A program made the position numbers and the translations under genes. Of a stretch of 64,000 nt of DNA, positions 641 to 26,261 are shown piece by piece; within the stretch, counting starts at the first letter, position 1; each line of letters begins with the position of its first letter. The notes below the pieces were generated by a model. The model did no database searches. It saw only the letters and a program-made list of their open reading frames with translations, and had not been told where the DNA came from. The DNA comes from a virus. The stretch covers positions 405,618 to 469,617 of the IMG/VR virus record IMGVR_UViG_3300028840_006907; one strand, given 5' to 3'.

Positions 641-3600
641 ATGGCAATACCAGCTCCAGAAATACTTCTTCCTACAGGTGGGATGGATTATGCAACAGAT
701 ATAGCCACACAGACTTTATCTGGTACAACTTCTGCTGATACTCAAGAGATCCAGATAAATGGGTCAGTTCATGGTGTATCATATACTGCAGGAGAAACTA
801 TTTGGTCCTGGACAGGTACTTTGACTTTAGGTAGTAATGTAATCAATATAATAGCAATTGAGAAAGTCACAAGTTTGCCTAGTCCTGCTACTACGATTAC
901 TATAACATTAATTCCACCTGAAGATGAGGTGATTACGGTTAGTTCTCCTACTGGAGTACAGACATTACGTTATCAAGATAAAATCGAAATAAAGAATGTT
1001 CAGAATCCTGAACCCAATACAATAGGGTATAATTACTATGTTAGTACACAAAGTGGTGGGATAGATGGAGTTTATGCGAAAATCAATACTGATTACATAA
1101 CTGAATATACTTCATACGAAGATAAAGCAACTCTCATAAATACAGTTACTGATACAACTGGTAATATACGTGTGACAGTTACAACTGAACAAATAACCAG
1201 AGAATATTATTATTCGGTCTTTTTTGATCAGGAACGTTATACTGAATTAGTAGAAGCTGAACTATTACCAGCAGTATCTTTTAATCAGAATACTCCATTC
1301 TTTTTTGTTGTTACAGCTATAATATATGATCCAGTTCTTGGACAGGTAACTGAAAGTGCCAATTCGATTGAACTTCAGAGTTCTCCTGTTACTATTACGA
1401 CAGGAATAAGAACACTCCCTGCTAGAACTCAGAATGATATTATCCTTACTTTTAGTCAAGATCTTTTATTATCAAATACTGGGACTGATACAAAGCCAGG
1501 TACAGTGGTAAGAGATATGATGGATCCCATCTCGGAGGAGATGGCTAGAGTTTATGTAATTCAGGATTTTCTCGCTCGATCTCTATCAGTTAGTTCATTA
1601 TTGGATTTTGATGATGCTGATGGAGATGGTGAGAGTGATGCAGTAGAGGATTCCATTCCGAAAAAAGCTTTACAACTTGCTCTTATGCTTACTGATCCTG
1701 ACGATGTCCAGGCAGTTATTGATGCTCAATTTGATAAACTGGCTTCTAATGCTGATACAACAAGAAGATCTGCAACATATGCAGTGGGAGAGGTTACATT
1801 TTTTGTCACCGAAGCTCCTATAAGGGATATGGTAGTAAATGAGGGTGCTATAGTTTCTACTTTAGGTGATTTGGATAGTGGTATCCAGGCACAATCTTAT
1901 AGAACATTAGCTACAAAGATATTAGATTATGAAACTCGTGAAAGATTTTATAATTCGACAACAGGACGCTATGAGATGAGTCTTGATGTTGAGGCATTAA
2001 ATGTAGGTGAAGAAGGGAATACAGATTCTTATACAGTTAAAGTAGTTTCTTCAGGGGCCGATTCAAATTTTCAGGTAGAAAATCCTAATCCTATAAGTTT
2101 TGGTGAAGATATAGAATCAAATTATAATTTAGCCACTAGGATAATGTTGGCATTTTTTGCTGATACCGGTACTGAGGGAGGTTATGCTAAAATAGCTGCC
2201 AGTGTCTCTGGTGTAAGAAGAACTCGTATCGAAAAAGCCGGTGATCCACTAATGATCAGAGACTATGATCCTATAAGAGAAAAACATGTTGGTGGAAAGG
2301 TGGATGTTTATATCCAAGGATCAAGATCGAGACAAGTAACTGATCAGATAGCTTTTTCATTTGAAAGTATAGTATCGAGCCAAGGGGCTCAATCGGAAGA
2401 ACAATTCCTTGTGATAAATGCAGTGGCCTTTCAGTTTAAGACCACGAATCCCCGGGTAACATCACATACCCCCATCTTTGAAGTAAGTCGAGTATATAAT
2501 GCAACGAGAGCACAGGAATATGATATTTCTGGATACCAAATCATAGGTGATGGTAATACTGTTGATCTTGATGAAACTAAAGCTCAGAATGCTGCTATAG
2601 GTTTAGCTGCTACAGATGTAATAAAAGTCGATTACAAATTTAGGAGTTCGGATACTTTTGTTCTACAGAATCAACCTGTAAATGATATTGTCTCTATTGT
2701 GGGTCAATTATCTGGTACATTAACTTCTGATAACTGGGATTTAGTTACACTTGAAGATCCTTTGGCAGAAGGCCGGTCTACAATAGCACAAGATAGTGTG
2801 AGAATAAAATTTGCAAATAATTTACCTCTTACAGGTTTTCAAACAATTACTGATGAGGTTCATGTAATGATTTTGGGTAAAAATGAACCTCTTGATTTTT
2901 TAGGGGCTGACCCTACTTCTATTGTAGTTAAAAATTTGGCTAAGACTGTTACTTATGTATTAAATGTGGATTACAGAATCGATCCTGGTACTGATACTGA
3001 GGCTACTGAAATTATTATGATAGAATCAGGTAGTATCAGTAATGGAGAGCAGGTTTTAATAAATTATGTAGCAATTGAAAATTTTATTATAACTTATACA
3101 ACGAATGAGTTATTAGAAACTGTTCAAGATGAATTGGATGAATATAAGCATGCCTGTGCTGATGCCATAGCAAAACAGGCCATAGAAAATGGTGTTGATT
3201 TTGCTTTTACTGTGGTACCGAAATCTAATGTGGTAGATTTTAACACATTGACTTCTCAGATTACAACCTCGATAGCAAATTTTATAAGTCAATTGGATAT
3301 AGGTGTCTCACTTACTCAAAGTGATGTGGATAATCAAATAAGAAAAGTTGATGATGTAGATTATGTTGTCCTTCCGTTTACTCGTATGGTAAAATCTGAT
3401 GGCTCTCAGATTGTACGAGATGATATAGGTCAAGTACAATTTGAAGTATATAATGATGGTGTTACAAGATCTTATATAACTTCAGCAACGGTCCTTTCTT
3501 ATAATACTATTGATAAGGGTGGTGATGAGAATAAATTTAGAGGAGTATTTGAGAACACAGTTGCACTTATTTTACAGGATGATCCTCTTGATGTTTCGGG

Positions 3601-3814
3601 AGGTGCAGGACGTGCCTATATCCAGAGTGATGGAAAAATAATCGTAAGTACTATTGATGGTCAGTTACCTGATACGAAAAATTATGAAGTAGCATATTAT
3701 GTGGAAGGGGAAACTGGTTCTGAAGATATTAATGTAGCAGCAGTTGAGTCTTTAAAAATTGGGACTCTAACAATTGCTTATGATACACCACGAGAACAAC
3801 TTCCTTCGTTATAA
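641..3814 (+). CDS. large Thr/Ser/Asn-rich protein, putative virion structural protein (1057 aa)
   Basis: Long uninterrupted ORF; composition typical of phage fibre/baseplate proteins; functional call is inference only. Confidence 0.55.
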   Translation: MAIPAPEILLPTGGMDYATDIATQTLSGTTSADTQEIQINGSVHGVSYTAGETIWSWTGTLTLGSNVINIIAIEKVTSLPSPATTITITLIPPEDEVITVSSPTGVQTLRYQDKIEIKNVQNPEPNTIGYNYYVSTQSGGIDGVYAKINTDYITEYTSYEDKATLINTVTDTTGNIRVTVTTEQITREYYYSVFFDQERYTELVEAELLPAVSFNQNTPFFFVVTAIIYDPVLGQVTESANSIELQSSPVTITTGIRTLPARTQNDIILTFSQDLLLSNTGTDTKPGTVVRDMMDPISEEMARVYVIQDFLARSLSVSSLLDFDDADGDGESDAVEDSIPKKALQLALMLTDPDDVQAVIDAQFDKLASNADTTRRSATYAVGEVTFFVTEAPIRDMVVNEGAIVSTLGDLDSGIQAQSYRTLATKILDYETRERFYNSTTGRYEMSLDVEALNVGEEGNTDSYTVKVVSSGADSNFQVENPNPISFGEDIESNYNLATRIMLAFFADTGTEGGYAKIAASVSGVRRTRIEKAGDPLMIRDYDPIREKHVGGKVDVYIQGSRSRQVTDQIAFSFESIVSSQGAQSEEQFLVINAVAFQFKTTNPRVTSHTPIFEVSRVYNATRAQEYDISGYQIIGDGNTVDLDETKAQNAAIGLAATDVIKVDYKFRSSDTFVLQNQPVNDIVSIVGQLSGTLTSDNWDLVTLEDPLAEGRSTIAQDSVRIKFANNLPLTGFQTITDEVHVMILGKNEPLDFLGADPTSIVVKNLAKTVTYVLNVDYRIDPGTDTEATEIIMIESGSISNGEQVLINYVAIENFIITYTTNELLETVQDELDEYKHACADAIAKQAIENGVDFAFTVVPKSNVVDFNTLTSQITTSIANFISQLDIGVSLTQSDVDNQIRKVDDVDYVVLPFTRMVKSDGSQIVRDDIGQVQFEVYNDGVTRSYITSATVLSYNTIDKGGDENKFRGVFENTVALILQDDPLDVSGGAGRAYIQSDGKIIVSTIDGQLPDTKNYEVAYYVEGETGSEDINVAAVESLKIGTLTIAYDTPREQLPSL

Positions 3815-3826
3815 GGAGCTTTATGT

Positions 3827-6800
3827 ATGGCTGAGAATTTAGGAACGGGTGTTTCTTTTGTTGATGAGAGTAATGGGTATAATTATGATAAAGTTGTTTT
3901 CCAAAAACAAAAGCCACCTTTAGATACTGAATTAAATCTTGCTCAAGAGATACAAAATTTACTGGCAAAAAGACATATAAAAGGAATGCCTTCTGGTTGG
4001 TTAAATATAGAGGACTTTTATACAAGTTCATTATTAGAAAACCAATTTTATACCCAAGATCCGGACACAGCTATTCCAGAATATGCTGTTGTGAATGGTA
4101 TGGTTCTTTATGTGACTAACACTGGTACTTCTGAAACAAATTCAAATTTGATCACTCTTACTGATCCTCCTACCTCAGGTAATCTTGTTAATGGTGTAAT
4201 CCTAGAAGTATGGAGAGCTTTATTAGATACAGAAACCGATAATAACAGACCTGATTCAACAGTGGTTATAGATTCGTTAATGGCTATTGATGCCGTTACT
4301 GAAAATAGTGCCTGGACAGTCGGGGAAAATGGGCTTATTCTAGCTACTGAAAATGGTGGTCAAACATGGTCGGTTCAATTAATTGATACAAAAAAGAAAT
4401 TAAATGATGTTCATTTTATAAATACAACAGTAGGTTGGGTAGCCGGTGATAATGGTGCCATAGGTAGAACTTCATCTGGTGGTGTAACTTGGCTCGTATT
4501 ACAGAGTGGCTATACTGAGAATTTCAATGGGATTCATGCAGCTACACATCTAATTGCTTGGGTTGCTGGTGATGGTGGTATTATTCTTAAAACCGTCAAT
4601 GGAGTTAACTGGTCGGCTCAAAATAGTAATGTTACAGCAAATCTTAATGATATTTATTTCTATGATAGTTTAGTAGGATGGGCAGTAGGAGATAATGGTA
4701 CTATAATAAAAACCACTGATGGTGGATCCAATTGGATAACATTAACAAGTGGTACCACAGAAAATTTAAACGCTGTCTTTTTCTATGATTTAAATTTTGG
4801 TTTTGCTGTTGGTGATAATGGTACAATTTTAAGATCATCTGATGGTGGGCTGTCCTGGGTTGATCAATCTGGTAACATATACACTGGTTCTGGTTATACA
4901 AGTCTTTCAGTGAATTACACTGATGTCACAATGGCCCCTTCTCTTGATATCCACGTGACCAATGAAGAGGTAACTTCCCAATTTACAGGTTCAAATAAAA
5001 ATTGTACTGTAGTGAATGTTCCTATGACTAAAGGTGATGGGTTAGGTACAACAACGAATAGCCCTGCTGATGTCGATGGTGAGGGTAATTTAAGTACTGT
5101 TGTAACTGTAAATGGTACTTCTGTTCTTATAGATAGCATTGATGGAACTACAGGTCAAATTATTCTTAATCAGGCTCCTCAAGCATGTGATACAGTCCTT
5201 GTCTCTTATTGGCATAAAGTCAGCCCTGATATTTTTACGGGTAGGGCATGGATTACAGGGGCATCTGGAACAGTGTTGATGAGTCCAGACATTGGTGCTA
5301 ATTGGAATCAACAAACTCCAAATACCAGCTATGATTTAAATGGTGTAAGTTTTGTTGATCAAAATAAGGGATGGGTAGCTGGAGCATTTTCAGTGATGCG
5401 ACATACTGAAGATGGTGGTACTACATGGACTACTCAAATCAGTGATACCGTTTCTCGAAGGGTGCAACGGGTTTATAATGAAGGTAATGTAGATACTGTT
5501 ATCTTTTTGGATGATGAAATGATCCATCCTGACACAAACATAGAAACGACAAAAAGAGTTCAAATTCAATATAAAATAAGAGTTATAGAAAATGTTGATC
5601 CCTTTTCATATCCGGATGCGGGGCTAGGCTCAGCGGGTATTGTGGCTCTAGGGCCAAATGCTACAGGATCATTTGCTTATCAGAACATGGGTTCTACGAC
5701 AGGTGATTATGGTTTATGGCAAGCGAAATGCTCTAATACAGTAGATGGGTACGCATGGGCTATCCCAATGTTTTTTGTCAATAGAAGAAATAGCACTACT
5801 TTTAATGCTGCCAATAATACAAATGGTTCTAATGCTAAAGGTACTTCAAATATCCGACCTGATCTTTTGACCGGTGTTGATGTTGTAGATCAGGATATTC
5901 TTGATGTCAGGAGACAAATATTTATCCCTTCAGTGACTGAATTACTAAATAGTAGTTTTGATGCCCTTATGAATAATCAGTTAAAAACTCGATTTTTCAG
6001 ACAAACCACTGGTGGTGATAGTTATTCTGTTGAGCCTTTACAATTGGATTATATCGCGCATGGTTCTGGTACTGAAATTGATGCTACATTGAGCGAGGCT
6101 GTTTCGGGACAAGTCACATCAATTACAACAACGAGTACAATATCTCAAAGTGTTCCTGCATCTACTTCTTTACCTTTTGATGTGACATTAAGTATTCCAG
6201 TAGGAACTCGGGGATTATTTCATCCTAATTCTATTTATTATACAGCTCGTTATGTAAGTAATAGTGCCACATATGATGGGAAACCTATTCCGGGAGAATT
6301 TACTGGTATAGGTACAAATTCAGTAACGTTTAATTTTAGTGCAAAAGTAAACACTACAAATGAAGACACTAATTTAGTCAGTTATGATATTGTGGCTCAT
6401 TATGTAATATTTAGTCCTAAGTCATTGAGTAAAATTCCTTCTACTCCTCAGCTAGTAGAAAATACAGGAACGGTAAGTGAACCTTCTTTTTTCTATAGAG
6501 GAGTATTTACCAGTGAAACTTCTGGTAGAAAGATTGAAGAATGGGATTCAGGTATTTCAGGATATCCGAGTTATACTCTAGCCTATCCTGTTATAGAGGC
6601 AGGAAGTACTGCACAGGAAGCCCGAGCTTCTTCGATTGAGGTACATTTATATATAAGACTAACTAGTACTGAAATACAAAGTATTAATCAGATTAAGATA
6701 AGTCAGGAAGTTTATCCTGATGTTGCAGATACGACTTCTTATTATAATCTTTACTGTGTCAGTGAAATAAATAATATCACTTCTGGTTTTAGTTTTAAGA

Positions 6801-7903
6801 TAGATGATATTGTAATCACAGATGCCATTTATATTGACAGTGCTTCTGGTTTCCCCTTTATCGAAGGTAATGTCATTGAAATTGTGGGTATGGCATTGGC
6901 AGCTACCGGTAATTCTTATACCAGAAATGGTGCAAGTGTTAATTTTACTCAGGGTGAGAAAAAAATAAGCCCATTTGCTTATTCATCTCGTTTAAAAATA
7001 ACTTCATTTCCTCCTGGGTCTATATCAAGTGTTCAGTTTACTAGCCTCGATGCTGATAGTGGTCAAATCTCCACAGCTTCTGGGGTATTTCTTGGTATAA
7101 GTACAACAGAAACTGTGAATAGTTTAACTGATCATTTTGCTTGGGTTGATGTTGGAGCGGGAGATGTTCTTACTCCAGTAACAGTGACAGGATTTAATAC
7201 CACGACTTTAACAGTAAATTTCGCTACTCCTATATCACCAACTAGTGTCAAGATACAGGCTTTAATAAAACAGGCTAATTTAATTTATGGCACTGATGCT
7301 GATGATGGATTACAGATAGCTTATAATTTTATTCCGAGTCAAACTCCTACAAATCTTCCTTCCAGTTTAATAGTAGGGATGGTTACTAATCCTACAAGTA
7401 TTTATATATCAAATTTAGGTACTGGAGGCAGTCTTGTAGATAAGGAACCTTATAGTTTCCCTATTGATAGTATCCCTGTAAATAATAGCTCTATTATTGA
7501 TGATAATGAATTTTATAATTTAGATCTATTTAGATTTTCTAATTTCTCAGTAGATAGTGGGTTTGTTCAGATGCCTACTATTGTTCCTGGTTCTTTTGGG
7601 GAAGAGTTAACTTTTTCAAGTTTAACTACTGATGAGTTGTTACGTACTTTTTATAGTACATGTGATACAGAATTTGCCTTCAGAACAGAAGGTATAAAAA
7701 TTGGAATACCGAGAAAGATATTTATCGCTACTATAGGAAGAGTAAAAGAGAACTCTACTCAATTATTACGAGGTGAATATGTTCTTATAATAATTTCCAG
7801 AGATAGCCTTACTGATTTAGAAAATTACACAGGTTGTGAAACAGGAAGTGGTAATGTTATCGGGATCTACCGATTACCGAATAAGCCATTGGTAAGAAAG
7901 TAA
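3827..7903 (+). CDS. giant putative structural protein with embedded BNR/Asp-box beta-propeller (1358 aa); paralogue of 13823..16876
   Basis: AAGGAG RBS upstream; seven S/T-x-D-G-G-x-x-W-like repeats (GGQTWS, GGVTWL, GVNWS, GGSNWI, GGLSWV, GANWN, GGTTWT); shared blocks with the 13823 ORF (VVFQKQKPPL, LEVWR, RVQIQYKIR, YAWAIPMF, DILDVRR). Confidence 0.7.
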   Translation: MAENLGTGVSFVDESNGYNYDKVVFQKQKPPLDTELNLAQEIQNLLAKRHIKGMPSGWLNIEDFYTSSLLENQFYTQDPDTAIPEYAVVNGMVLYVTNTGTSETNSNLITLTDPPTSGNLVNGVILEVWRALLDTETDNNRPDSTVVIDSLMAIDAVTENSAWTVGENGLILATENGGQTWSVQLIDTKKKLNDVHFINTTVGWVAGDNGAIGRTSSGGVTWLVLQSGYTENFNGIHAATHLIAWVAGDGGIILKTVNGVNWSAQNSNVTANLNDIYFYDSLVGWAVGDNGTIIKTTDGGSNWITLTSGTTENLNAVFFYDLNFGFAVGDNGTILRSSDGGLSWVDQSGNIYTGSGYTSLSVNYTDVTMAPSLDIHVTNEEVTSQFTGSNKNCTVVNVPMTKGDGLGTTTNSPADVDGEGNLSTVVTVNGTSVLIDSIDGTTGQIILNQAPQACDTVLVSYWHKVSPDIFTGRAWITGASGTVLMSPDIGANWNQQTPNTSYDLNGVSFVDQNKGWVAGAFSVMRHTEDGGTTWTTQISDTVSRRVQRVYNEGNVDTVIFLDDEMIHPDTNIETTKRVQIQYKIRVIENVDPFSYPDAGLGSAGIVALGPNATGSFAYQNMGSTTGDYGLWQAKCSNTVDGYAWAIPMFFVNRRNSTTFNAANNTNGSNAKGTSNIRPDLLTGVDVVDQDILDVRRQIFIPSVTELLNSSFDALMNNQLKTRFFRQTTGGDSYSVEPLQLDYIAHGSGTEIDATLSEAVSGQVTSITTTSTISQSVPASTSLPFDVTLSIPVGTRGLFHPNSIYYTARYVSNSATYDGKPIPGEFTGIGTNSVTFNFSAKVNTTNEDTNLVSYDIVAHYVIFSPKSLSKIPSTPQLVENTGTVSEPSFFYRGVFTSETSGRKIEEWDSGISGYPSYTLAYPVIEAGSTAQEARASSIEVHLYIRLTSTEIQSINQIKISQEVYPDVADTTSYYNLYCVSEINNITSGFSFKIDDIVITDAIYIDSASGFPFIEGNVIEIVGMALAATGNSYTRNGASVNFTQGEKKISPFAYSSRLKITSFPPGSISSVQFTSLDADSGQISTASGVFLGISTTETVNSLTDHFAWVDVGAGDVLTPVTVTGFNTTTLTVNFATPISPTSVKIQALIKQANLIYGTDADDGLQIAYNFIPSQTPTNLPSSLIVGMVTNPTSIYISNLGTGGSLVDKEPYSFPIDSIPVNNSSIIDDNEFYNLDLFRFSNFSVDSGFVQMPTIVPGSFGEELTFSSLTTDELLRTFYSTCDTEFAFRTEGIKIGIPRKIFIATIGRVKENSTQLLRGEYVLIIISRDSLTDLENYTGCETGSGNVIGIYRLPNKPLVRK
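4270..5460 (+). other. BNR (Asp-box) beta-propeller-like domain inserted in the 3827..7903 protein
   Basis: Seven Asp-box-like repeats spaced about 40-60 aa apart; region absent from the paralogue 13823..16876. Boundaries approximate. Confidence 0.55.
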
Positions 7904-8870: not shown

Positions 8871-11800
8871 ATGACTCAAATATATCTACCAGATTCAGAA
8901 GAACTCGGAAGACGCCGATTCCATGATGCTAAAAGTGATCGTCGTAATTTAAAAAATCTCGCTGAGCAACGTCTCCTTGAGATGCGAACGTTATTGCCTT
9001 CTAATTACCCTAAAGATCCCTATAGTAGTAATCTTGCTTTATTCCATCGTTTTAATGCTCGGGAGCTGTCTCGAATAAGAATCTCTAATGATGATATATC
9101 AAGAGATTCTCAATACACTACGACAAGACCAGAGTATCTTCATCAGATTCTTGGTGAGAGGCTTTTTTTAGGCAATAGAATAGCTCCTCTTGGTTACAAT
9201 GACCAGACATATAGAGAATTTTTAATAGCGATTAAAAACACTTATTTGCGGGGATCGCGGGTTGATGATATTGAAGCATTAGCCAGTCAGTTTACAGGTC
9301 AGGAAGTTATCATAAAAGAGTTGTATAGGGAATTAAGGAATCCTGATACATCTCTTGATGTCACTGACACAAATTACATGGTTGTTGAAGCATTGATACC
9401 TGGTCAATTACCTGCTGGTTATAATATAACTTCATTATTAAATGATTTAGATTTTTACATTAATTTAGTGCGGCCAGCGCATGTTTTATATGATACACGA
9501 TTGATATGGACTGAGACCATTGATGTAAATAAGACAACAGATATCTATTTTGGTGATACCGGTGGTGGTTGTGTCCCTCTTTATATTTTTGACCCTTTTG
9601 ATGAAACAACGCTTATGGCGTTGCAGGTATTTGTCCTTCCTACTAGTGAAGGAGCAACAGGTCGAATAGATTCCATTCATCATTGGGATTACCTTTTTTA
9701 TTTGGAAGATGGCACCAGAGTATTAACTGAACCAGGTACTCAGGGAACACAGATTTTTGATGTAAATGGTCGTCAGATTAGTTTTAGCTCTCTTGAAATA
9801 GGTGATCATGTAAAAATAAATTATCAAATTATACCTGGTAATTTTCAATTCTGGTGGTATCCTGTAGGTTTGTTTCCTACATGGAGTTCACAGTTCTATA
9901 GAGATTATTACAGACTTCCCATATTCCAGGAATATGTAAAAAAACATATGGATTCTAAGGGGAGATTTCCTCTTCAGATAAGAACAACTGAAACGACCGT
10001 TTGTGATCGTTGGGTAACAGATGCTCTTCAGCCTTATTATGAAGATTTAAGAACAAATTGTTCCAGTGGAAGTGTCCAGTCTAAAGATTATTCTTCTACT
10101 CTTAACATCAGAATGGGAAGTGGTCATTTTGCCAATCCTTATGGTACAAACCAGACAGCTCTGCCTGGAAATGAATTTGCTTTTTTCATGGAAAACACTC
10201 CCTTAACTGATGGATCGAGTAATCCAGCTACAGTTTCAGATGTTTCTGTGATGTTAGATGGAAGTTCTTTACCTCCTCAACCGGTAGTATATGTCGATGC
10301 TAGTTCCGGGAAAGTGCAATTAAGTGAGGACCATGAATATTGGGATAATACAGCATTAACTTTTCCTATTCCTGGGGAAGAGTTCCAATTTGATTATTCT
10401 TATCTTCAGGATAGTACTAATTATGATACATCATCTATATATGTCTATGGAGTGGGTAGCTGGCAGATGCCAAATGCTCCTCTTGTAGAAGGTGATAGTA
10501 CGGGTATTCTTGCGGATACAAGTGATGTAACATTATCTGTAGATGGTACAGTAATAAGTAATGCAATAACAGATGTAAATGCTTTATTAGGGCATGTAAC
10601 AGTTAATCAACTTTCGAGCTTTTGGAATAGTTCTGAATTAGGACGTTTACCTCAGGTAGGAGATGAGTTTTTATTTAGTTTCTTTTATGGTAAGAAATAT
10701 CAATATTCTTGTCTTTTTGATGAATTGGGTAGAACTTTTGATACTTATATAGGTCCGAATTCAACTTATGGTATTGTTTTCGACGGAGAATTAAACCAAA
10801 ATCCTGAAACAGCTCCTATAACACCAGATGCAACTGCAGTAATAGGTTATCGTTATCGGGGTTATTTATTACATCATAGTTCGGTATTAAATTCTCCTGA
10901 TACGTTACAATTAAATACTTTTCAGAAACCTGCTACTCGTGCTTCTATAATAAATCAGGCTAATACTATAAATCATTTTAATATTTTCTTTTCACCTGAA
11001 TTTCTTTATGATACTACGGCATATGATTATTTAGATGATTCTTATCTTGAAAATGGATTAGACCCGATTCTGAAATTAAATGTAGGTACTCCTCCTTTTC
11101 AAAAGACATGGTCATATCATCCAGGATTGGTTAACAGTAGAAAATTACAAGATATAAGAACAAATCATCGTTTACTACTTTATTCTGATTTACTACTGAA
11201 AGAGTTCCAAGAAGGTAATGAAGACATACCTTTAAGTTCTATATGTGATTCAGAACGGGTAGAATTTAGAATACGTATTGATGGTGATGATATACCGCCT
11301 TTAGAAGAATGTCCTCCGTGGATTTTATTTGATTCTGTTCAGGTCGATGATGTTGAAGTTACAGTCCCGGGATTTTATCAGGGTGTACCAAATGTCAGAG
11401 TACCTGGAATGAATTTACGCGAAAGTTTTATTCTTAGGGAATTGGAATCTACTGGTGTTGGCGAATATACTTATACCTTTAATACTGATAGTAGTGCTAC
11501 TCCTGAATATTACTTACCTGCAACATTTCCATATACGTATAATGGTGATACAATTAGCTTTCCTGCTTTACCTGTTATAGATATTAATGGTAATCCGGCA
11601 ACGATTAGTGATATAGAAGTTAGGGTAAATGGAGTTTTATGGACTGTATTAAGTCTTGATCCAGTGACAGGTTTTGTACAGGTAAGTCCGTATCCGGCTG
11701 GTCCGGCTATTCAAGTAGAGACAAAATATTACATAAACAATGTTGTGACAATGCCTATGGCAAATTGGGATTGGTCTAGGATTCTTGATGACGATGATGT

Positions 11801-12185
11801 CTTTCCAGGTTATTGTCAGGATGGTGTAGGTATTACGCTAGGACTCAATTTTGATGAATTCTTTACGTTTCTTGATGATGATAGTGATGGTATTAAGATA
11901 GTGTTTTTCAATAAGGATACTTTAAATGTTGAGGAGCATATCTTTTCAGGACCAGTTTTTGAGTATTACAATATAGCTGATGACGAATTAGGTTCACCTG
12001 ATAACTTTCCAAATGCTTTAGTAAGATTAGTAAATCCGATACACTTAACTAATCCTCTGAGTTATTCTGGTGATTATAGCTTTCTGAATGATAAAGTTGT
12101 GAGATTTAGGAAGAAAACATTTAAAGAGCTTCTTCCTAGTAAGACATTTCGAACTATAGAGTTGATGGAAATGATGCCTCTATAA
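8871..12185 (+). CDS. large hypothetical protein, putative virion structural protein (1104 aa)
   Basis: Long ORF with no internal stops; no catalytic motif recognised. Confidence 0.55.
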   Translation: MTQIYLPDSEELGRRRFHDAKSDRRNLKNLAEQRLLEMRTLLPSNYPKDPYSSNLALFHRFNARELSRIRISNDDISRDSQYTTTRPEYLHQILGERLFLGNRIAPLGYNDQTYREFLIAIKNTYLRGSRVDDIEALASQFTGQEVIIKELYRELRNPDTSLDVTDTNYMVVEALIPGQLPAGYNITSLLNDLDFYINLVRPAHVLYDTRLIWTETIDVNKTTDIYFGDTGGGCVPLYIFDPFDETTLMALQVFVLPTSEGATGRIDSIHHWDYLFYLEDGTRVLTEPGTQGTQIFDVNGRQISFSSLEIGDHVKINYQIIPGNFQFWWYPVGLFPTWSSQFYRDYYRLPIFQEYVKKHMDSKGRFPLQIRTTETTVCDRWVTDALQPYYEDLRTNCSSGSVQSKDYSSTLNIRMGSGHFANPYGTNQTALPGNEFAFFMENTPLTDGSSNPATVSDVSVMLDGSSLPPQPVVYVDASSGKVQLSEDHEYWDNTALTFPIPGEEFQFDYSYLQDSTNYDTSSIYVYGVGSWQMPNAPLVEGDSTGILADTSDVTLSVDGTVISNAITDVNALLGHVTVNQLSSFWNSSELGRLPQVGDEFLFSFFYGKKYQYSCLFDELGRTFDTYIGPNSTYGIVFDGELNQNPETAPITPDATAVIGYRYRGYLLHHSSVLNSPDTLQLNTFQKPATRASIINQANTINHFNIFFSPEFLYDTTAYDYLDDSYLENGLDPILKLNVGTPPFQKTWSYHPGLVNSRKLQDIRTNHRLLLYSDLLLKEFQEGNEDIPLSSICDSERVEFRIRIDGDDIPPLEECPPWILFDSVQVDDVEVTVPGFYQGVPNVRVPGMNLRESFILRELESTGVGEYTYTFNTDSSATPEYYLPATFPYTYNGDTISFPALPVIDINGNPATISDIEVRVNGVLWTVLSLDPVTGFVQVSPYPAGPAIQVETKYYINNVVTMPMANWDWSRILDDDDVFPGYCQDGVGITLGLNFDEFFTFLDDDSDGIKIVFFNKDTLNVEEHIFSGPVFEYYNIADDELGSPDNFPNALVRLVNPIHLTNPLSYSGDYSFLNDKVVRFRKKTFKELLPSKTFRTIELMEMMPL

Positions 12186-20416: not shown

Positions 20417-21928
20417 GTGAAAAAGGTATTTCGTTCAATAATAAATATAAGAAAAAACAAGATTCCAACAATTCCACTGGATGAACTATCTAAAAATTAT
20501 CGAGTATTTCTCACTAGTAAAATTCAACCGGAAGATCCCTCCTATATAAAACTGTATGAATGGATTGAGTCTCATTATCGGGAATTTAAGGAATTGCCTT
20601 CAATAGAACTTCTTTTTGAAAAGGCTAATAATGAGGGGGATGAAGTAATAGTATCTCATTTGAGTGATATTGTTTCTGAGATCCCATTTTGGGGTTCTGA
20701 TTATAGAGCTATTCTAAAAACGAAATTTACGGAACAATGTGAGGATGAATTTAAAACAATTGTTGAAAAGACGTGGCAGGTAGCAAAGAACGGTTTGAAA
20801 TTGAAGGGGAAAAAGAAAAAGGAAATAAAAGGTTTAAATGAAGCGGTTACTTATTTCAATAGTCAATCCAAAAAATTTTTGTTTAATGCCTTAGATATAA
20901 AAAATGAAGGTCAAATAAAAAGTAGAGAGGATAGTGCTGAAGTGATAGAGGATTATAATAGAGGAAAAAAAGACCCTCTTACAAATATAGGGCTATTTGT
21001 TGATTTGGAGAAAATTGATAATGTTTTTAGAGGCATAAAACTTGGTGACCTATTTATAATCGCAGCATTTGTAGGTCAGGGTAAATCCACTTTTGCTGTA
21101 AATCTGGCCTACAGTGGGATCATGCAAGGATTAAATGGAATGTTTGTTACATTGGAAATGCAGTATGATGAAATGAGAAATATGTTCTATGTATTACATT
21201 CCAGTTATCCTGGTTGGTATGCTTATCCGGAATATAAAAAATTTGTTGGAAAAATTACTTATGATAAAGTTCGTTATTCCGAATTGTCCCCAACTGAGGA
21301 AGAGTTCTTCAATGTTGTCTGTGAAGATTTTGGTTCAAATAGAGAGGATTTCGGAGAATTGTTTTTAGTTAAGCCTCCAGCAAATTGTACTCCTTCTTAT
21401 TTAGAAACAACTTTAGAAGAATATAATAATGAGTTAAAGGATCGTGGGAAAGTTCTGGATTTTCTTGTTGTGGATTATGTAGGGTTAATGGTTCAGGATA
21501 AAGACCAGAAATACGGGGATTGGAGAGTTGATCTTAATAATATGATAAGAAAGTTAAAAAACCTGACTATCAATTTTGATAATGGAAGAGGGTTAAGAGT
21601 TATTACTCCATATCAATTTAACCGTCAAGGTCATAGGGATGCTGTAAAAAATGACGGTATTTATAACCTCACAGCTTTATCTGATGCAAATGAAAGTGAA
21701 CGGTCCTCTGATGGGGTTATAGCTCTTTTCAATACCGAGGAAATGCGTAATAGTGGTATTGTAAAAATAAGTTGTCTAAAAAATCGGGACGGAGCGCATT
21801 TCGCTCCTTTTGAAGCCAATCTAGATTTTGCTACTAAGAAATTACGGGATTTCGATCAGACCGTTGAAAATTCGCAAGATGAAATGGGTATAGAAGATAT
21901 ATCTTCGGAGATTTCGTTAAATATATGA
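20417..21928 (+). CDS. DnaB-like replicative helicase (503 aa)
   Basis: RecA-like C-terminal domain: Walker A AAFVGQGKSTFAVNLA, Walker B LDFLVVDYVGLM. Confidence 0.8.
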   Translation: MKKVFRSIINIRKNKIPTIPLDELSKNYRVFLTSKIQPEDPSYIKLYEWIESHYREFKELPSIELLFEKANNEGDEVIVSHLSDIVSEIPFWGSDYRAILKTKFTEQCEDEFKTIVEKTWQVAKNGLKLKGKKKKEIKGLNEAVTYFNSQSKKFLFNALDIKNEGQIKSREDSAEVIEDYNRGKKDPLTNIGLFVDLEKIDNVFRGIKLGDLFIIAAFVGQGKSTFAVNLAYSGIMQGLNGMFVTLEMQYDEMRNMFYVLHSSYPGWYAYPEYKKFVGKITYDKVRYSELSPTEEEFFNVVCEDFGSNREDFGELFLVKPPANCTPSYLETTLEEYNNELKDRGKVLDFLVVDYVGLMVQDKDQKYGDWRVDLNNMIRKLKNLTINFDNGRGLRVITPYQFNRQGHRDAVKNDGIYNLTALSDANESERSSDGVIALFNTEEMRNSGIVKISCLKNRDGAHFAPFEANLDFATKKLRDFDQTVENSQDEMGIEDISSEISLNI

Positions 21929-22467
21929 AAAGTCCAGAGAAATTGAAAGAGCTGATTTTAAGTGAAGTGGATCTCAGCAAGGTTATGATAGACTATGGGG
22001 TGGAGTTTGTCTATAACCCGGAGCTAGTGGATGAGGCACAGCTTCGTTGTCCATTTCATGGTAAAGATAGGAAACCTTCAGCCAGGTATTATCGGGAAAC
22101 TCAGACAATGTTTTGTTGGGTTTGTCACAAATCCTGGGATGTGATAAGGTTTGTTATGGAAAAAGAACAGATGTATTATAAAACGGCTCTTTTACATATA
22201 GTAAATAAGTATCAATTAGATATTTCAGTAATTCCCGATGAACCTGAATTTATTATAGAGAAAATAGTGCCAATTTCAGATACATCTGTATGGACTTTAG
22301 ATGCTGAGAAGAAAATAAAAGAATTTAGAAATAAACTCATTTATAAACGTTACAGTGCTTTAGTAACTGCTTATCATATAATAATGTTCAATTCATCAAA
22401 AGATATAGATATTTCAGAAGACATCCAAAAATTAAATAATAAATTAGATACACTCAAAATAGGATAA
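21925..22467 (+). CDS. DnaG-type primase zinc-finger domain protein (180 aa), no TOPRIM domain evident
   Basis: CPFHGKDRKPSARYY...FCWVCHKSWDVIRFV resembles the CHC2 zinc finger of bacterial primases. Confidence 0.55.
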   Translation: MKSPEKLKELILSEVDLSKVMIDYGVEFVYNPELVDEAQLRCPFHGKDRKPSARYYRETQTMFCWVCHKSWDVIRFVMEKEQMYYKTALLHIVNKYQLDISVIPDEPEFIIEKIVPISDTSVWTLDAEKKIKEFRNKLIYKRYSALVTAYHIIMFNSSKDIDISEDIQKLNNKLDTLKIG

Positions 22468-22472
22468 TATTA

Positions 22473-25400
22473 ATGGCACCAAAAAAACAATTTGTAAACA
22501 CAGGATTTATGGAATTTGTGGAGGATACTGTTCAAACCAGAATAGCCGAAATGCCATGGATGGCTGATCGTACGTTTAAATTAGCCAAGAGCATGGAAGA
22601 AGTGGAAAATTACATTGATAGGGCGATAGAAGCGAAAAGATGTGCCCTTGATTTGGAAACGACAGGACTTAATACAAGGGTAAAAAAAGTAGATGGTAAA
22701 ATTGTTCCTATTGGTAAAATAGTAGGTTTTGCTTTATGTTATGATCCGAAAGTGGCCATTTATATCCCTATTAATCATAGAGAAGGGATAGAATTTAATC
22801 TTCCAGAAGAGGCTGTTTTAAAGGAGATAAAACGTCTTTGTTATAATTGTATTACAATATACCATAATGCTAAATTCGATTTAACTTATTTAAAGAATTA
22901 CGGTATTGTTCTTGATAATCATAATCAATTCGAAGATACACTTTTGCTGGCGTATTTGCATGATTCAGGAAGAAAAGCCAATAAATTAAAGGATCTCTCT
23001 CCAGAATTACTTGATCAACCAATGTTAAAATTTAATGAGGTTGCCAAAGAAGGTCATTTTGATCTTGTCTCCCCTGATGTGGGGTATACATATGGAGCCT
23101 CTGATGCTATGTGTACTATGGATTTATATATCTTTTTTACGGAACAGGAAATTATAAAGAGTCAACAGATGATATATAACTTAGAGAAACGGGTTGTATT
23201 TGTTATGATGGATATGGAAGCAAATCTAATAAAAATTGATGTTCCATATCTCAAGGACTTAAAAACAAAAGTTGAAAACCGTATAGAAGATATTAAAAAA
23301 GAGATACATCAATTGGTCGGTTATGAATTTAATTTGGGAAGTTCACAGAAATTAGGTAAAATACTATTCGATGATTTGAAATATAAATATCCAGAGAAAA
23401 CAAAAACCAAATCTGGGCAATACAGCACTGATAGTAAAACCTTAAATAAAATAGCTGACCTTTACCCCATTGTTAAGAAGATCATAAATTTCCGTGGATT
23501 GGAAAAAGTTTTATCGACATATATTAATAATCTTTTGAACAACCACGATGAAGAAGGTTTTGTAAAACTTCAATTTAAACAGACTGGAACTGATACCGGA
23601 AGATTTTCGAGTCCTGGTGGTCAGGGTATTCATATAGATGGGTCTTCAGGAGTTAATGTCCAGAGTATTCCAAAGATGCCTAGTGAGGATAATCCTGACA
23701 TTGATATGAGAAGGGCGTTTATTGCTCGTCCTGGTAAAACGATGGTAGCGATTGACTATGCAAATGAAGAGATGCGGGTAGCTACAAATATTTCGAATGA
23801 GACTGCCTGGATTGAATCGATTCATAAAGGAATTGATTTCCATACTGCTACAGGTGCTATTATCTCGGGAAAAGATCCTAAGGATGTATTAAAAAGTGAG
23901 AGGAAAATAGGAAAGACAGTTAATTTTTTGGCCCTTTATTTAGGAGGCCCATTTACTCTTGCAGGTAATGCTAAAATAACTGTACCGGAGGCCAAAAAGA
24001 TTCTAGCCACATTTTTTGCAGGAGTTCCTAAACTGAAGAAATGGATTGACCGGGTGATCGTGGTAGCTAGAAAAGAGAAATTTGTTAAAACTATTTTTGG
24101 GCGTACTAGACCGTTAAATAAGTACTATGATAGTGGGGATAAGGGATTGGCTGCTCATGCAGATCGATGTGCAGTTAATACAAAAATTCAAGGTTGCCTT
24201 TGTCAAGAAGAGCGCTGTTTAACAACAGAAGGTTATTTATCTATTATAAAAATCAAAAAGTTAAAGGAATCAGGCCAAAATTTAAAAATATGGACTGGGG
24301 TTTCATGGGAGGATTTTGAAGTATTGGATCGTGGAGAGGCTCAATTAGCGATAATTGAATTAAAAAATGGAATGATTCTTCATTGTGATACACGGCATGA
24401 AGTATTAACAGTAAATAATGAAAGATATGAATTTAAAAAATTTAATGAATTAACAGAAGATACTAATATATGTATATCTCGCCCTCAATTATTAAAATTT
24501 GGGAGTTATCCTGAGGAAATTATTTTTGAGGGAAATGTATGGAATGCACAGAAATTGAAAGTGAGTACGGCAGAGGAGTGGGATTTTATAGCCTATTTAT
24601 TAGGATGTGTTATTGGAGATGGCTCAATATACATTGATAAAAAGGCATCTAAATATGTTATAACATTAAATTTTGGTGAAGAAAAGATAAGAAGAATATT
24701 TCCTGATCTTAAGAGAAAATTAAATGATCTCGGATTAAATATTTCGGAACCTGTTTTAAATAAAGGTAGTAAAGGTATTTGTTATAAAACGAGTATCTGT
24801 TCCGTTACTTTAACAAAACTTTTTGGAGAAATGGGTTATCATTTTCATGATGCTCGTGATAAGAGAATCCCTCAACGAATTATGGAATCCCCTATAAAAA
24901 TGAGACAATCATTTTTACGAGGTTATTTTGATACAGATGGATGTAAGAAAGAGGCCAATAAATATGGTTTCCATACTCCTAATAAAGATCTATTGAGAGA
25001 TATTCAATTATTAGCTTGGACCCTAGGATGTCCCTCTACTATTTATGATTGTGGTGATGGCTCATCCATATTTAATTGGATGAATTATCGAATTTTTGCG
25101 GAATTAATGGACTTAACTTATAAAAAAGAAGAGAGAAAATGTAACACACAAAATATGCCTTTACCTGATTTTTTAAGAGAGCCTATATTAAATTCTTTAG
25201 GGAATTGTTATGTAAAAAATGGGAATGATCGCTCATATGTATGTAAAGTTAGGAAGGGTAAAAATGTTAGTTTACCTGGAATAGTGTCATTATTAGAAAG
25301 TTATAATTGTGAACTACCGGAAATTTATTATCATTCCAAATTAGAAAAGAAAAGAGTTTTAAGTAAAAAAGAAGTTACATACACTTTATCAGTAAAATCT

Positions 25401-26261
25401 CCTTTACATCGGTTTGATTCTGCTGGAATTATAAGTAAAAATACTTCGGCGGATATTATGAAGGCTGTCATGGCCCGGATGAACTCCTGGCTCACGAGAA
25501 ATAATCTGCATGATGATATAAAAATATTGATTACCATGCATGATGAATTGGTTTTTGAGATTACAACTGAAAAATTGCAGATACTGGTACCAGAGATTTG
25601 TAAGATCATGCAGTTGAATGATATTATTCAGGGTCAATTGAAATGGCCCATTCCTTTGGAAGTTGATATACAGTATGGTGATACTTGGAGAGTTAAAGGT
25701 GATTTTCTTAAGGATTTTCCTGATTTGAGGAATAAATTAAGTGAGCCTTTAATGGAATTTGAATCTTTACAGAAGATAAAAGATGATGTGCCAAAAGATA
25801 AAAATGATGAACCTCCGGTGGAAAGTAATAAAATTGAAGAAGAAAATTCAGAGAAAGATTCAAATGAGGTACCAGATAACCAGATTATAGAGGAAAAAAC
25901 TCCTTCTGAAATACAAGATATAGAAAAGTCTGAACAACATGATGTACCTAAAGATAAGGAGGTTTTGGAGAAAGTTGATAGTGGTACTGTAGATAGTAGT
26001 AAAATATCAGAAAAAAAAACTCTAAACGGCGGTGATATATCGGGTCAATATTTGATTTATACTCTGCGAGAATTGAGTACGATAAGTTCACGATGGTTGA
26101 ATGATATTTTGGTTTTTTTGAATGATGAGGGCAATCGATATGAAGAGAAAGATAAAAAAATTTTAAAAATCCGTGACAGATCAGGGAACTCTTTATTAGT
26201 TTCAGAGTATAAAGTACACCCTGAAAGTTTTTCCCTTTTGGCAAGATTTTTTGGGATATGA
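22473..26261 (+). CDS. family A DNA polymerase with 3'-5' exonuclease domain, interrupted by an intein, plus C-terminal extension (1262 aa precursor)
   Basis: Exo motif ALDLETTGL; Pol I motifs DYANEEMRVA (A), RKIGKTVNFLALYLGG (B), NTKIQG/TSADIMKAV split by the insert, ITMHDELVFE (C). Confidence 0.9.
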   Translation: MAPKKQFVNTGFMEFVEDTVQTRIAEMPWMADRTFKLAKSMEEVENYIDRAIEAKRCALDLETTGLNTRVKKVDGKIVPIGKIVGFALCYDPKVAIYIPINHREGIEFNLPEEAVLKEIKRLCYNCITIYHNAKFDLTYLKNYGIVLDNHNQFEDTLLLAYLHDSGRKANKLKDLSPELLDQPMLKFNEVAKEGHFDLVSPDVGYTYGASDAMCTMDLYIFFTEQEIIKSQQMIYNLEKRVVFVMMDMEANLIKIDVPYLKDLKTKVENRIEDIKKEIHQLVGYEFNLGSSQKLGKILFDDLKYKYPEKTKTKSGQYSTDSKTLNKIADLYPIVKKIINFRGLEKVLSTYINNLLNNHDEEGFVKLQFKQTGTDTGRFSSPGGQGIHIDGSSGVNVQSIPKMPSEDNPDIDMRRAFIARPGKTMVAIDYANEEMRVATNISNETAWIESIHKGIDFHTATGAIISGKDPKDVLKSERKIGKTVNFLALYLGGPFTLAGNAKITVPEAKKILATFFAGVPKLKKWIDRVIVVARKEKFVKTIFGRTRPLNKYYDSGDKGLAAHADRCAVNTKIQGCLCQEERCLTTEGYLSIIKIKKLKESGQNLKIWTGVSWEDFEVLDRGEAQLAIIELKNGMILHCDTRHEVLTVNNERYEFKKFNELTEDTNICISRPQLLKFGSYPEEIIFEGNVWNAQKLKVSTAEEWDFIAYLLGCVIGDGSIYIDKKASKYVITLNFGEEKIRRIFPDLKRKLNDLGLNISEPVLNKGSKGICYKTSICSVTLTKLFGEMGYHFHDARDKRIPQRIMESPIKMRQSFLRGYFDTDGCKKEANKYGFHTPNKDLLRDIQLLAWTLGCPSTIYDCGDGSSIFNWMNYRIFAELMDLTYKKEERKCNTQNMPLPDFLREPILNSLGNCYVKNGNDRSYVCKVRKGKNVSLPGIVSLLESYNCELPEIYYHSKLEKKRVLSKKEVTYTLSVKSPLHRFDSAGIISKNTSADIMKAVMARMNSWLTRNNLHDDIKILITMHDELVFEITTEKLQILVPEICKIMQLNDIIQGQLKWPIPLEVDIQYGDTWRVKGDFLKDFPDLRNKLSEPLMEFESLQKIKDDVPKDKNDEPPVESNKIEEENSEKDSNEVPDNQIIEEKTPSEIQDIEKSEQHDVPKDKEVLEKVDSGTVDSSKISEKKTLNGGDISGQYLIYTLRELSTISSRWLNDILVFLNDEGNRYEEKDKKILKIRDRSGNSLLVSEYKVHPESFSLLARFFGI
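24195..25442 (+). mobile_element. intein with LAGLIDADG homing-endonuclease domain, inserted in the polymerase (about 416 aa)
   Basis: Insert begins with Cys after KIQG and ends with Asn before TSADIM; LAGLIDADG-like motifs LLGCVIGDGSIYID and FLRGYFDTDG; N-terminal boundary ambiguous by about 21 nt. Confidence 0.7.

Follow-up and report, generated by a model that had tools for sequence, protein, structure and literature searches.

As the family A DNA polymerase (PolA) encoded in a 64,000-nucleotide (nt) stretch of viral DNA is split in a conserved segment of its active site, we asked what the inserted segment is and whether it belongs to the mature enzyme. This stretch, called the window below, covers positions 405,618 to 469,617 of the IMG/VR virus record IMGVR_UViG_3300028840_006907. 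Its polA is a single unbroken open reading frame (ORF) of 1262 amino acids (aa) at 22473..26261 (+), coordinates that include the stop codon. Pfam searches with this ORF detected a 3'-5' exonuclease domain and DNA_pol_A, the latter in two stretches (E 7e-87) with a break at residue 574, and a LAGLIDADG_3 match (E 5.5e-11) between the two DNA_pol_A stretches, inside the insert. We conclude with high confidence that the insert, at 24195..25442 (+), is a class 1 intein with a nested LAGLIDADG homing endonuclease, located in the palm of the family A DNA polymerase of a huge tailed phage. Inteins in DNA polymerase I, in the available text of two surveys (Novikova et al. 2016, PMC4760082; PMC5874633), and inteins in phage replication proteins (PMC7886860) are recognised categories, so that the window intein is a further case of a known type of element.

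Direct translation places NTKIQG at residues 569-574 (nt 24177..24194), followed by an insert of 1248 nt, exactly in frame, that runs from Cys575 to Asn990, starts with CLCQEERCLTTEGY and ends with FDSAGIISKN. TSADIMK begins at nt 25443, directly after the insert. An initial annotation of this DNA had described the same layout, with a segment of about 416 residues splitting the polymerase between NTKIQG and TSADIMK; both the position and the layout held, the length being exactly 416 aa. Its reading of the uninterrupted motif as IQGSAADI did not hold, as the clade reads IQGTSADI and Taq polymerase VQGTAADL. The alignment to intein-free PolA homologues that it had proposed revealed a precise empty site. 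In the closest insert-free relative (P0005, locus L012), a protein of 72% identity in a syntenic neighbourhood (polA, sigma-like gene, small ORFs, glycosyltransferase), the site reads ..AVNSKIQG^TSADIMKIMM.., the caret marking the insertion point. At the DNA level, its empty site is AAAATTCAGGGA^ACTTCGGCTGATATAATG, compared with AAAATTCAAGGT^ACTTCGGCGGATATTATG for the window flanks joined without the insert, and ~40 nt around the site are better conserved between the window and L012 than the whole gene (73% identical). The spliced window sequence (..adrcavntkiqgtsadimkavm..) also aligned without gaps across the junction to KlenTaq (..AERKAFNMPVQGTAADLMKLAM..), in which the counterpart of the junction is ..VQG^TAADLMK... 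The insertion point thereby falls between Taq G755 and T756 (counted from the KlenTaq chain start), two residues past the conserved Gln (Taq Q754) of the N-x-x-x-Q-G-T-A-A-D segment in the polymerase palm. We take Taq Gln754 to be the equivalent of Klenow Gln849, which contacts the minor groove at the primer terminus. On these alignments, the predicted excision boundary is precise, G574^C575...N990^T991, with the +1 residue Thr991 (25443..25445, +), a position occupied by T, S or C in relatives, as the putative C-extein nucleophile.

The N-terminal junction had initially been called ambiguous between two Cys residues. A second Cys is indeed present seven residues on, at residue 582, and the ambiguity is settled in favour of Cys575. 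To assess residue conservation, we aligned ~100 family representatives with at most 50% mutual identity to a profile. Of 103 representatives, 66 have V, 35 have I and only 2 have C at intein position 8, the place of Cys582 in the window, and the inserts of relatives start right after QG with CL(K/Q)xxE(R/K)(V/I/C)LTxxGY; the intein therefore starts at Cys575. Cys582 was rejected as the junction, since its counterparts are Val or Ile and a junction there would keep CLCQEER within the conserved QG^T motif; Cys582 occupies a hydrophobic position of a beta-strand. Separately, we observed three Cys residues in the first eight intein positions (positions 1, 3 and 8; CLCQEERC, 24195..24218), the one at position 8 being common in the closest relatives of the window intein and rare family-wide. 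A disulfide with Cys1 that gates splicing is conceivable from the sequence. As a mechanism of the whole family, a redox switch of Cys575 with Cys582 or Cys577 was rejected because of the rarity of Cys at position 8.

Does the insert carry the residues of a splicing domain? In a 12-sequence family alignment, block A (CLCQEERCLTTEGYLSI; 24195..24245, +) has invariant columns at C1, L2, L9, T10, G13, Y14 and I17, Cys1 (Cys575) being the predicted nucleophile. Conservation and profile-profile alignment (hhalign) located block B (GMILHCDTRHEVL; 24369..24407, +) with Asp65-x-Arg67-His68, and blocks F and G (TYTLSVKSPLHRFDSAGIISKN; 25377..25442, +) with Thr397 at F:4, His405 in block F, the penultimate Lys415 and the terminal Asn416. 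Canonical inteins are expected to end in His-Asn, with Thr-x-x-His as their block B motif and Asp as the F:4 residue, where the window intein has Lys-Asn, Asp-x-Arg-His and Thr. Among the representatives, Cys is found at position 1 in 101 of 101 and His68, the block B His (B:10) of class 1 inteins, in 103 of 103; Asp65 (101/103), Arg67 (91/103), Thr397 (86/88) and His405 (86/87) are nearly as constant. The terminal Asn416 (Asn990, G:7) is present in all 88 and is followed at +1 by T (65 relatives), S (50) or C (17) and nothing else. Lys415 (Lys989, G:6) is shared by 82 of 88 representatives, with His in only 3. The penultimate Lys, already remarked on in the initial annotation, is thus the norm of this family and has a precedent, as phage class 1 inteins often carry Gly, Lys or Ser for the penultimate His (Kelley et al. 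2016, PMC5050341) and the block F His has been proposed to take over its role (PMC5050341). The presence of Cys1 and the lack of a Trp-Cys-Thr triplet (F:4 is Thr and G:5 is Ser) led us to reject a class 3 or class 2 mechanism. In the 12-sequence alignment, the invariant columns are concentrated at the two ends (the first ~100 and the last ~25 residues), with far more variation in the endonuclease part.

As the curated intein profiles remained below their thresholds and sequence searches of the PDB matched the endonuclease part only, the Hint domain is documented through profile-profile comparison and a predicted structure. When the Hint-only parts of the family were compared by hhalign with canonical mini-inteins found at another site (site a) of the same polymerase clade, the two aligned end-to-end (probability 89.8%, E 1.8e-6). 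In this alignment, Cys1, His68, His405 and Asn416 matched the same residues of the canonical inteins (Cys1, the block B His, the block F His and the terminal Asn); Thr397 stood opposite the block F Asp and Lys415 opposite the penultimate His. An AlphaFold model of the intein, built from the 12-member alignment (pLDDT 91.6, pTM 0.91), showed a complete Hint fold, which the N-terminal and C-terminal portions of the insert build jointly and which wraps around the endonuclease. The best Foldseek matches in the PDB were all intein-endonucleases (TliVMA, E 2e-15; PhoVMA; PI-PkoII; PI-PfuI; PI-SceI), followed by I-DmoI. With these archaeal and yeast inteins of solved structure the window intein shares only 15-16% sequence identity, and whereas their hosts are V-ATPase, archaeal PolB and RNR, the host here is PolA. 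Boundaries, fold and conservation of splicing residues together support the initial proposal of an intein with a homing endonuclease at a conserved active-site position. The search for splicing blocks proposed alongside it likewise favours an intein: the blocks are present by profile-profile comparison, although the curated profiles PF14890 and TIGR01445 did not reach threshold.

Motifs and model also delimit a LAGLIDADG homing-endonuclease core at intein residues ~124-297 (24564..25085, +). Its two helices each end in an acidic residue within an alpha-beta-beta-alpha-beta-beta-alpha core, as in monomeric two-motif LAGLIDADG enzymes. The two motifs, both noted initially, are LLGCVIGDGS (24597..24626, +), in which Asp142 aligns with the first catalytic acid of I-DmoI, and FLRGYFDTDG (24912..24941, +), in which Asp248 aligns with the second. 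Asp is found at the Asp142 position in 73 of 100 representatives, being lost in a degenerate 300-aa form, and at the Asp248 position in 94 of 102. In the window copy both acids are intact and the core is full length and modelled with high confidence. An extra helical region follows the core at residues ~298-372 (25086..25310, +; model helices 298-304, 325-335, 343-353 and 360-369), which in the 12-sequence alignment is gapped together with the endonuclease in forms of 300 and 212 aa; it is presumed to be an accessory DNA-binding module.

The family to which the window intein belongs is large. An exhaustive profile search of 1.84 billion cluster representatives (clusters at 50% identity) returned 7461 proteins at E<=1e-3, 1217 at E<=1e-10 and 140 at E<=1e-30. 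The impression of a very rare element, given by only three matches in a word-indexed search with the intein, was rejected as an artefact of sensitivity in view of this search. Virtually all of the best ~140 are at the N-x-x-(I/V)-Q-G^ position of family A polymerases, including T7-like polymerases with the intein at the same site and a C-extein starting SAFHCLLW; all begin with Cys, and 118 of 132 end in Lys-Asn. Of the 120 best polymerase relatives, ~14 carry the same intein as the window and ~85 have no insert here or at site a. Those with an insert at the window site vary in its length (416, 358, 300 or 212 aa), as expected of an intein and not of an ordinary conserved domain. Full-length family forms measure 415-424 aa; in the shortened forms of 358, 300 and 212 aa the LAGLIDADG motifs are degraded or deleted, and block A, block B, blocks F/G and both junctions are intact. 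As these short forms keep the splicing blocks without the endonuclease, selection maintains splicing independently of the endonuclease.

Family members were found on ten IMG/VR viral contigs of 5.6-258 kb. On one of them (L010, 1759..4572, +), a 937-aa ORF resembling a terminase large subunit, with a Walker A-like GAIGSGKS, contains a relative of the intein (31-33% identity) that ends in ISKN, the junctions reading IHIDQ^C...ISKN^SLAVDSTG; PolA is therefore not the only host of the lineage. In GTDB representative genomes, scanned with just two peptide patterns specific to the family, no relative was found, and the deposited phages of INPHARED contained no close one, the best match being the helicase intein of Twort-like staphylococcal phages at 26% identity. 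A six-frame scan of the window with family profiles detected no second intein.

Relatives also provided evidence on selection and mobility. Where they were close enough for codon analysis, dN/dS was 0.13-0.27, in the Hint part as in the endonuclease part. The IMG/VR phages L003 and L011 are ~1% apart over 7 kb and within the intein (3001..4248 of the locus), and 4-15% apart in the extein segments of ~600 nt that precede and follow it (2400..3000 and 4200..4950). We interpret this mosaic as the pattern expected of endonuclease-initiated gene conversion with flanking co-conversion, although other recombination could give the same pattern. A further hyper-divergent patch separates the same two phages at 5850..6750. 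Intein and extein identities are only moderately correlated (Spearman 0.47). One relative, P0124, is 52% identical to the window in the intein and only 40% in the polymerase, which suggests transfer between polymerase lineages. Read from the sequences, full-length, shortened and empty alleles appear to represent the classical cycle of invasion and degeneration.

Several observations nonetheless weigh against a splicing, mobile intein in the window genome. Some concern the endonuclease. The acid of motif 1 is Asn in 20 of 100 relatives, which indicates that endonuclease activity is not universal across the family; the evidence for mobility comes from relatives, with none direct for the window genome, and no intein-less variant of the window genome itself was found. 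Together with the endonuclease-free short forms, these points would fit a functional intein with an already inactive endonuclease, vertically inherited and immobile in this genome. We regard this as possible but less likely than not, in view of the intact Asp142 and Asp248 in a full-length, confidently modelled core, the purifying selection on the endonuclease part in relatives (dN/dS 0.09-0.27) and the recombination tracts beside the intein in L003 and L011.

Other observations concern splicing. Three positions depart from the canonical set: B:7 is Asp65 instead of Thr, with a neighbouring Thr66 that is variable (T, V, D or I); F:4 is Thr397, which aligns with the Asp of canonical inteins; and G:6 is Lys989 instead of the penultimate His. 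Scores against curated profiles were low, with PF14890 at 16.3 bits against a cut-off of 35.8 and TIGR01445 at 17.1 against 24.5, although the latter alignment starts at Cys575; TIGR01443 was also below threshold, and PF14890 was matched weakly by all 12 family members. In the literature, we found no splicing test of any family member. A decayed intein, which no longer splices and leaves a polA copy that is non-functional or works with the insert in place, would account for the unusual residues and the low scores. Yet the same residues are fixed over ~100 diverged members, which marks them as a family signature and not as decay, and Thr at B:7 is frequent but not obligatory, as the canonical site-a inteins of the same clade also lack it (G-L-N-H). 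The low dN/dS in relatives and the splicing blocks retained by the mini forms likewise argue for function. Both the exonuclease motif and motifs A, B and C are retained in the polymerase, which is the only polA seen adjoining the replicative helicase and primase; in such an enzyme, 416 residues inserted two residues past the palm Gln would almost certainly destroy the active site. We therefore consider decay improbable, and the intein is, judging from its sequence, very probably splicing-competent.

A lineage-specific insertion domain of the ordinary kind, such as an accessory DNA-binding domain that goes back to a LAGLIDADG fold (as in WhiA), is effectively refuted by the complete Hint domain around the endonuclease, the Cys start and the Asn end followed by Thr, Ser or Cys in every relative, the absence of the insert, with a precise empty site, from most close homologues, and the relative of the insert in the unrelated terminase-like protein. 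Equally negligible is a group I or group II intron with its endonuclease ORF in frame with the exons and removal at the RNA level: introns that contain homing-endonuclease ORFs are frequent in phage polymerase genes (PMC7886860, PMC12880540), but no Rfam match was obtained at the gathering threshold anywhere in the window, nor any Rfam intron match at E<=1 in 23900..25800, all 1248 nt are coding and in frame, protein conservation is strongest at the two ends, and the product has a Hint fold.

How does the intein of the window compare with known phage and polymerase inteins? Like the mycobacteriophage inteins (PMC5050341), it is a phage-borne class 1 element in a host protein of replication or DNA metabolism and has its penultimate His replaced; the host proteins and the phage groups differ. 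Closer at hand is the site-a intein, which members of the same PolA clade carry in motif B (..R..[GA]K^CVAKGT...THN^T.NF..LYG) ~91 residues upstream of the window intein site. It resembles the window family in its host family and its life cycle, with full forms of ~365-392 aa and mini forms of ~130-150 aa, but unlike the window intein it is canonical at F:4 (Asp), ends in His-Asn and is annotated by Pfam as Intein_splicing and Hint_2. Approximately 22 of the 120 closest relatives carry it (P0021, P0025, P0034, P0041, P0044, P0069-P0071, P0080, P0082, P0086, P0087, P0090, P0094, P0098, P0100-P0103 and P0108 among the carriers), and three relatives contain both inteins. The window allele is empty at site a (~23905..23915, ..SERKIGK^TVNFLALYLGG..). 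The surveys that include bacterial DNA polymerase I inteins cover cellular genomes and, in their available text, mention such inteins generically (PMC4760082, PMC5874633); the insertion point and residue signature of the window intein are not described in the available text of either. The literature searched contained neither the phrase 'PolA intein' nor a description of this insertion site or residue signature.

The boundaries, the fold, the conserved residues, the purifying selection, the empty and degenerate alleles and the recombination tracts in relatives are established, and the established class 1 mechanism suggests how the element would act. Translation would yield the 1262-aa precursor, in which Cys575 would undergo an N-to-S acyl shift to form a thioester. 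The hydroxyl of Thr991 would then take over the N-extein by transesterification, cyclisation of Asn990 would free the 416-aa intein, and an O-to-N shift would leave an 846-aa polymerase with the sequence ..KIQG-TSADIMK... Splicing itself, the roles of Lys, Asp and Arg, and the activity and target of the endonuclease are inferred. During co-infection, the endonuclease of the excised intein would presumably cut intein-less polA alleles at ..AAAATTCAAGGT^ACTTCGGCGGAT.., a candidate target that may also be written as the intein-less site ..GTTAATACAAAAATTCAAGGT^ACTTCGGCGGATATTATGAAGGC.., and repair of the cut allele would copy the intein in (homing).

The gene product as a whole is a PolA precursor (22473..26261, +), a 3'-5' exonuclease and family A polymerase interrupted by the intein, assigned by Pfam and by an identical 1262-aa protein (P0004). 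In a search with the conceptually spliced 846-aa polymerase, this protein was found on public contigs, the longest of 469,617 bp; the same search returned many insert-free relatives of 800-850 aa. The N-extein (aa 1-574; 22473..24194, +) ends in ..AVNTKIQG and comprises the exonuclease domain and polymerase motifs A and B, as delimited by the KlenTaq alignment up to Taq Q754-G755. By translation and alignment, the C-extein (aa 991-1262; 25443..26258, +) comprises TSADIMK.., motif C (MHDELV), an acidic linker and a conserved C-terminal domain. Linker and domain together occupy 25800..26258 (PolA aa ~1110-1262). The linker is a low-complexity segment rich in Glu, Lys and Ser whose length varies across the PolA clade. 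The domain of ~70 aa that follows it, with the pattern ..YTLRELS..RWLNDIL.FL......KKILKIRD..GNSLLVSEYKV....F..LARFFGI, had no Pfam match.

Around polA, the window encodes a Baseplate_J protein, a DnaB-like helicase, a DnaG-type zinc-ribbon protein, a sigma-like factor and glycosyltransferases. The 'primase' next to polA (21925..22467, +; 180 aa) matched the DnaG zinc ribbon only, with no sign of a TOPRIM or catalytic primase domain. Three very large ORFs lie in a run: 641..3814 (+; 1057 aa, Baseplate_J domain), 3827..7903 (+; 1358 aa, BNR/YCF48-like repeats) and 8871..12185 (+; 1104 aa, no Pfam match). They probably form a baseplate or tail-fibre module, which identifies the source as a tailed phage. 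An 813-aa protein at 35187..37628 (+), with matches to the major-vault-protein shoulder (E 1.4e-23), a Vault_3 repeat and SPFH/Band_7, is unusual for a phage genome. The window has a G+C content of ~32%, and no tRNAs were found in it. Taken together with the 470-kb length of the contig, these features point to a huge tailed phage without a close cultured relative; no deposited phage is closer than ~30% identity in PolA.

For annotation, the finding means that the polymerase of this ~470-kb phage should be recorded as an 846-aa enzyme plus a 416-aa intein, and that phylogenies of viral PolA must strip the insert, in a clade that has two different intein sites. The 212-aa natural mini form and the endonuclease, with a predicted target of ~20-30 bp in a conserved polA segment, are candidate parts for protein engineering. 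The window intein on its own leaves the current understanding of inteins unchanged. The family may merit a short note, and its constellation of Lys, Arg and Asp a biochemical test. More doubtfully, the family may be a large and so far undescribed group of viral PolA inteins, known from metagenomes only, in which three classical catalytic positions are replaced as a set (Asp-x-Arg-His, Thr at F:4 and Lys at G:6). If Lys415, Arg67 and Asp65 do act together as an alternative catalytic arrangement, both in the acyl shift and in Asn cyclisation, they would define a mechanistic sub-class of class 1, and the family could supply splicing domains that differ in their rate, pH or redox behaviour. Overall, the family indicates that the set of Thr-x-x-His, Asp and His-Asn can be replaced wholesale by Asp-x-Arg-His, Thr and Lys-Asn and conserved in that form over deep divergence, and it offers a natural test case for Asn cyclisation without a penultimate His.

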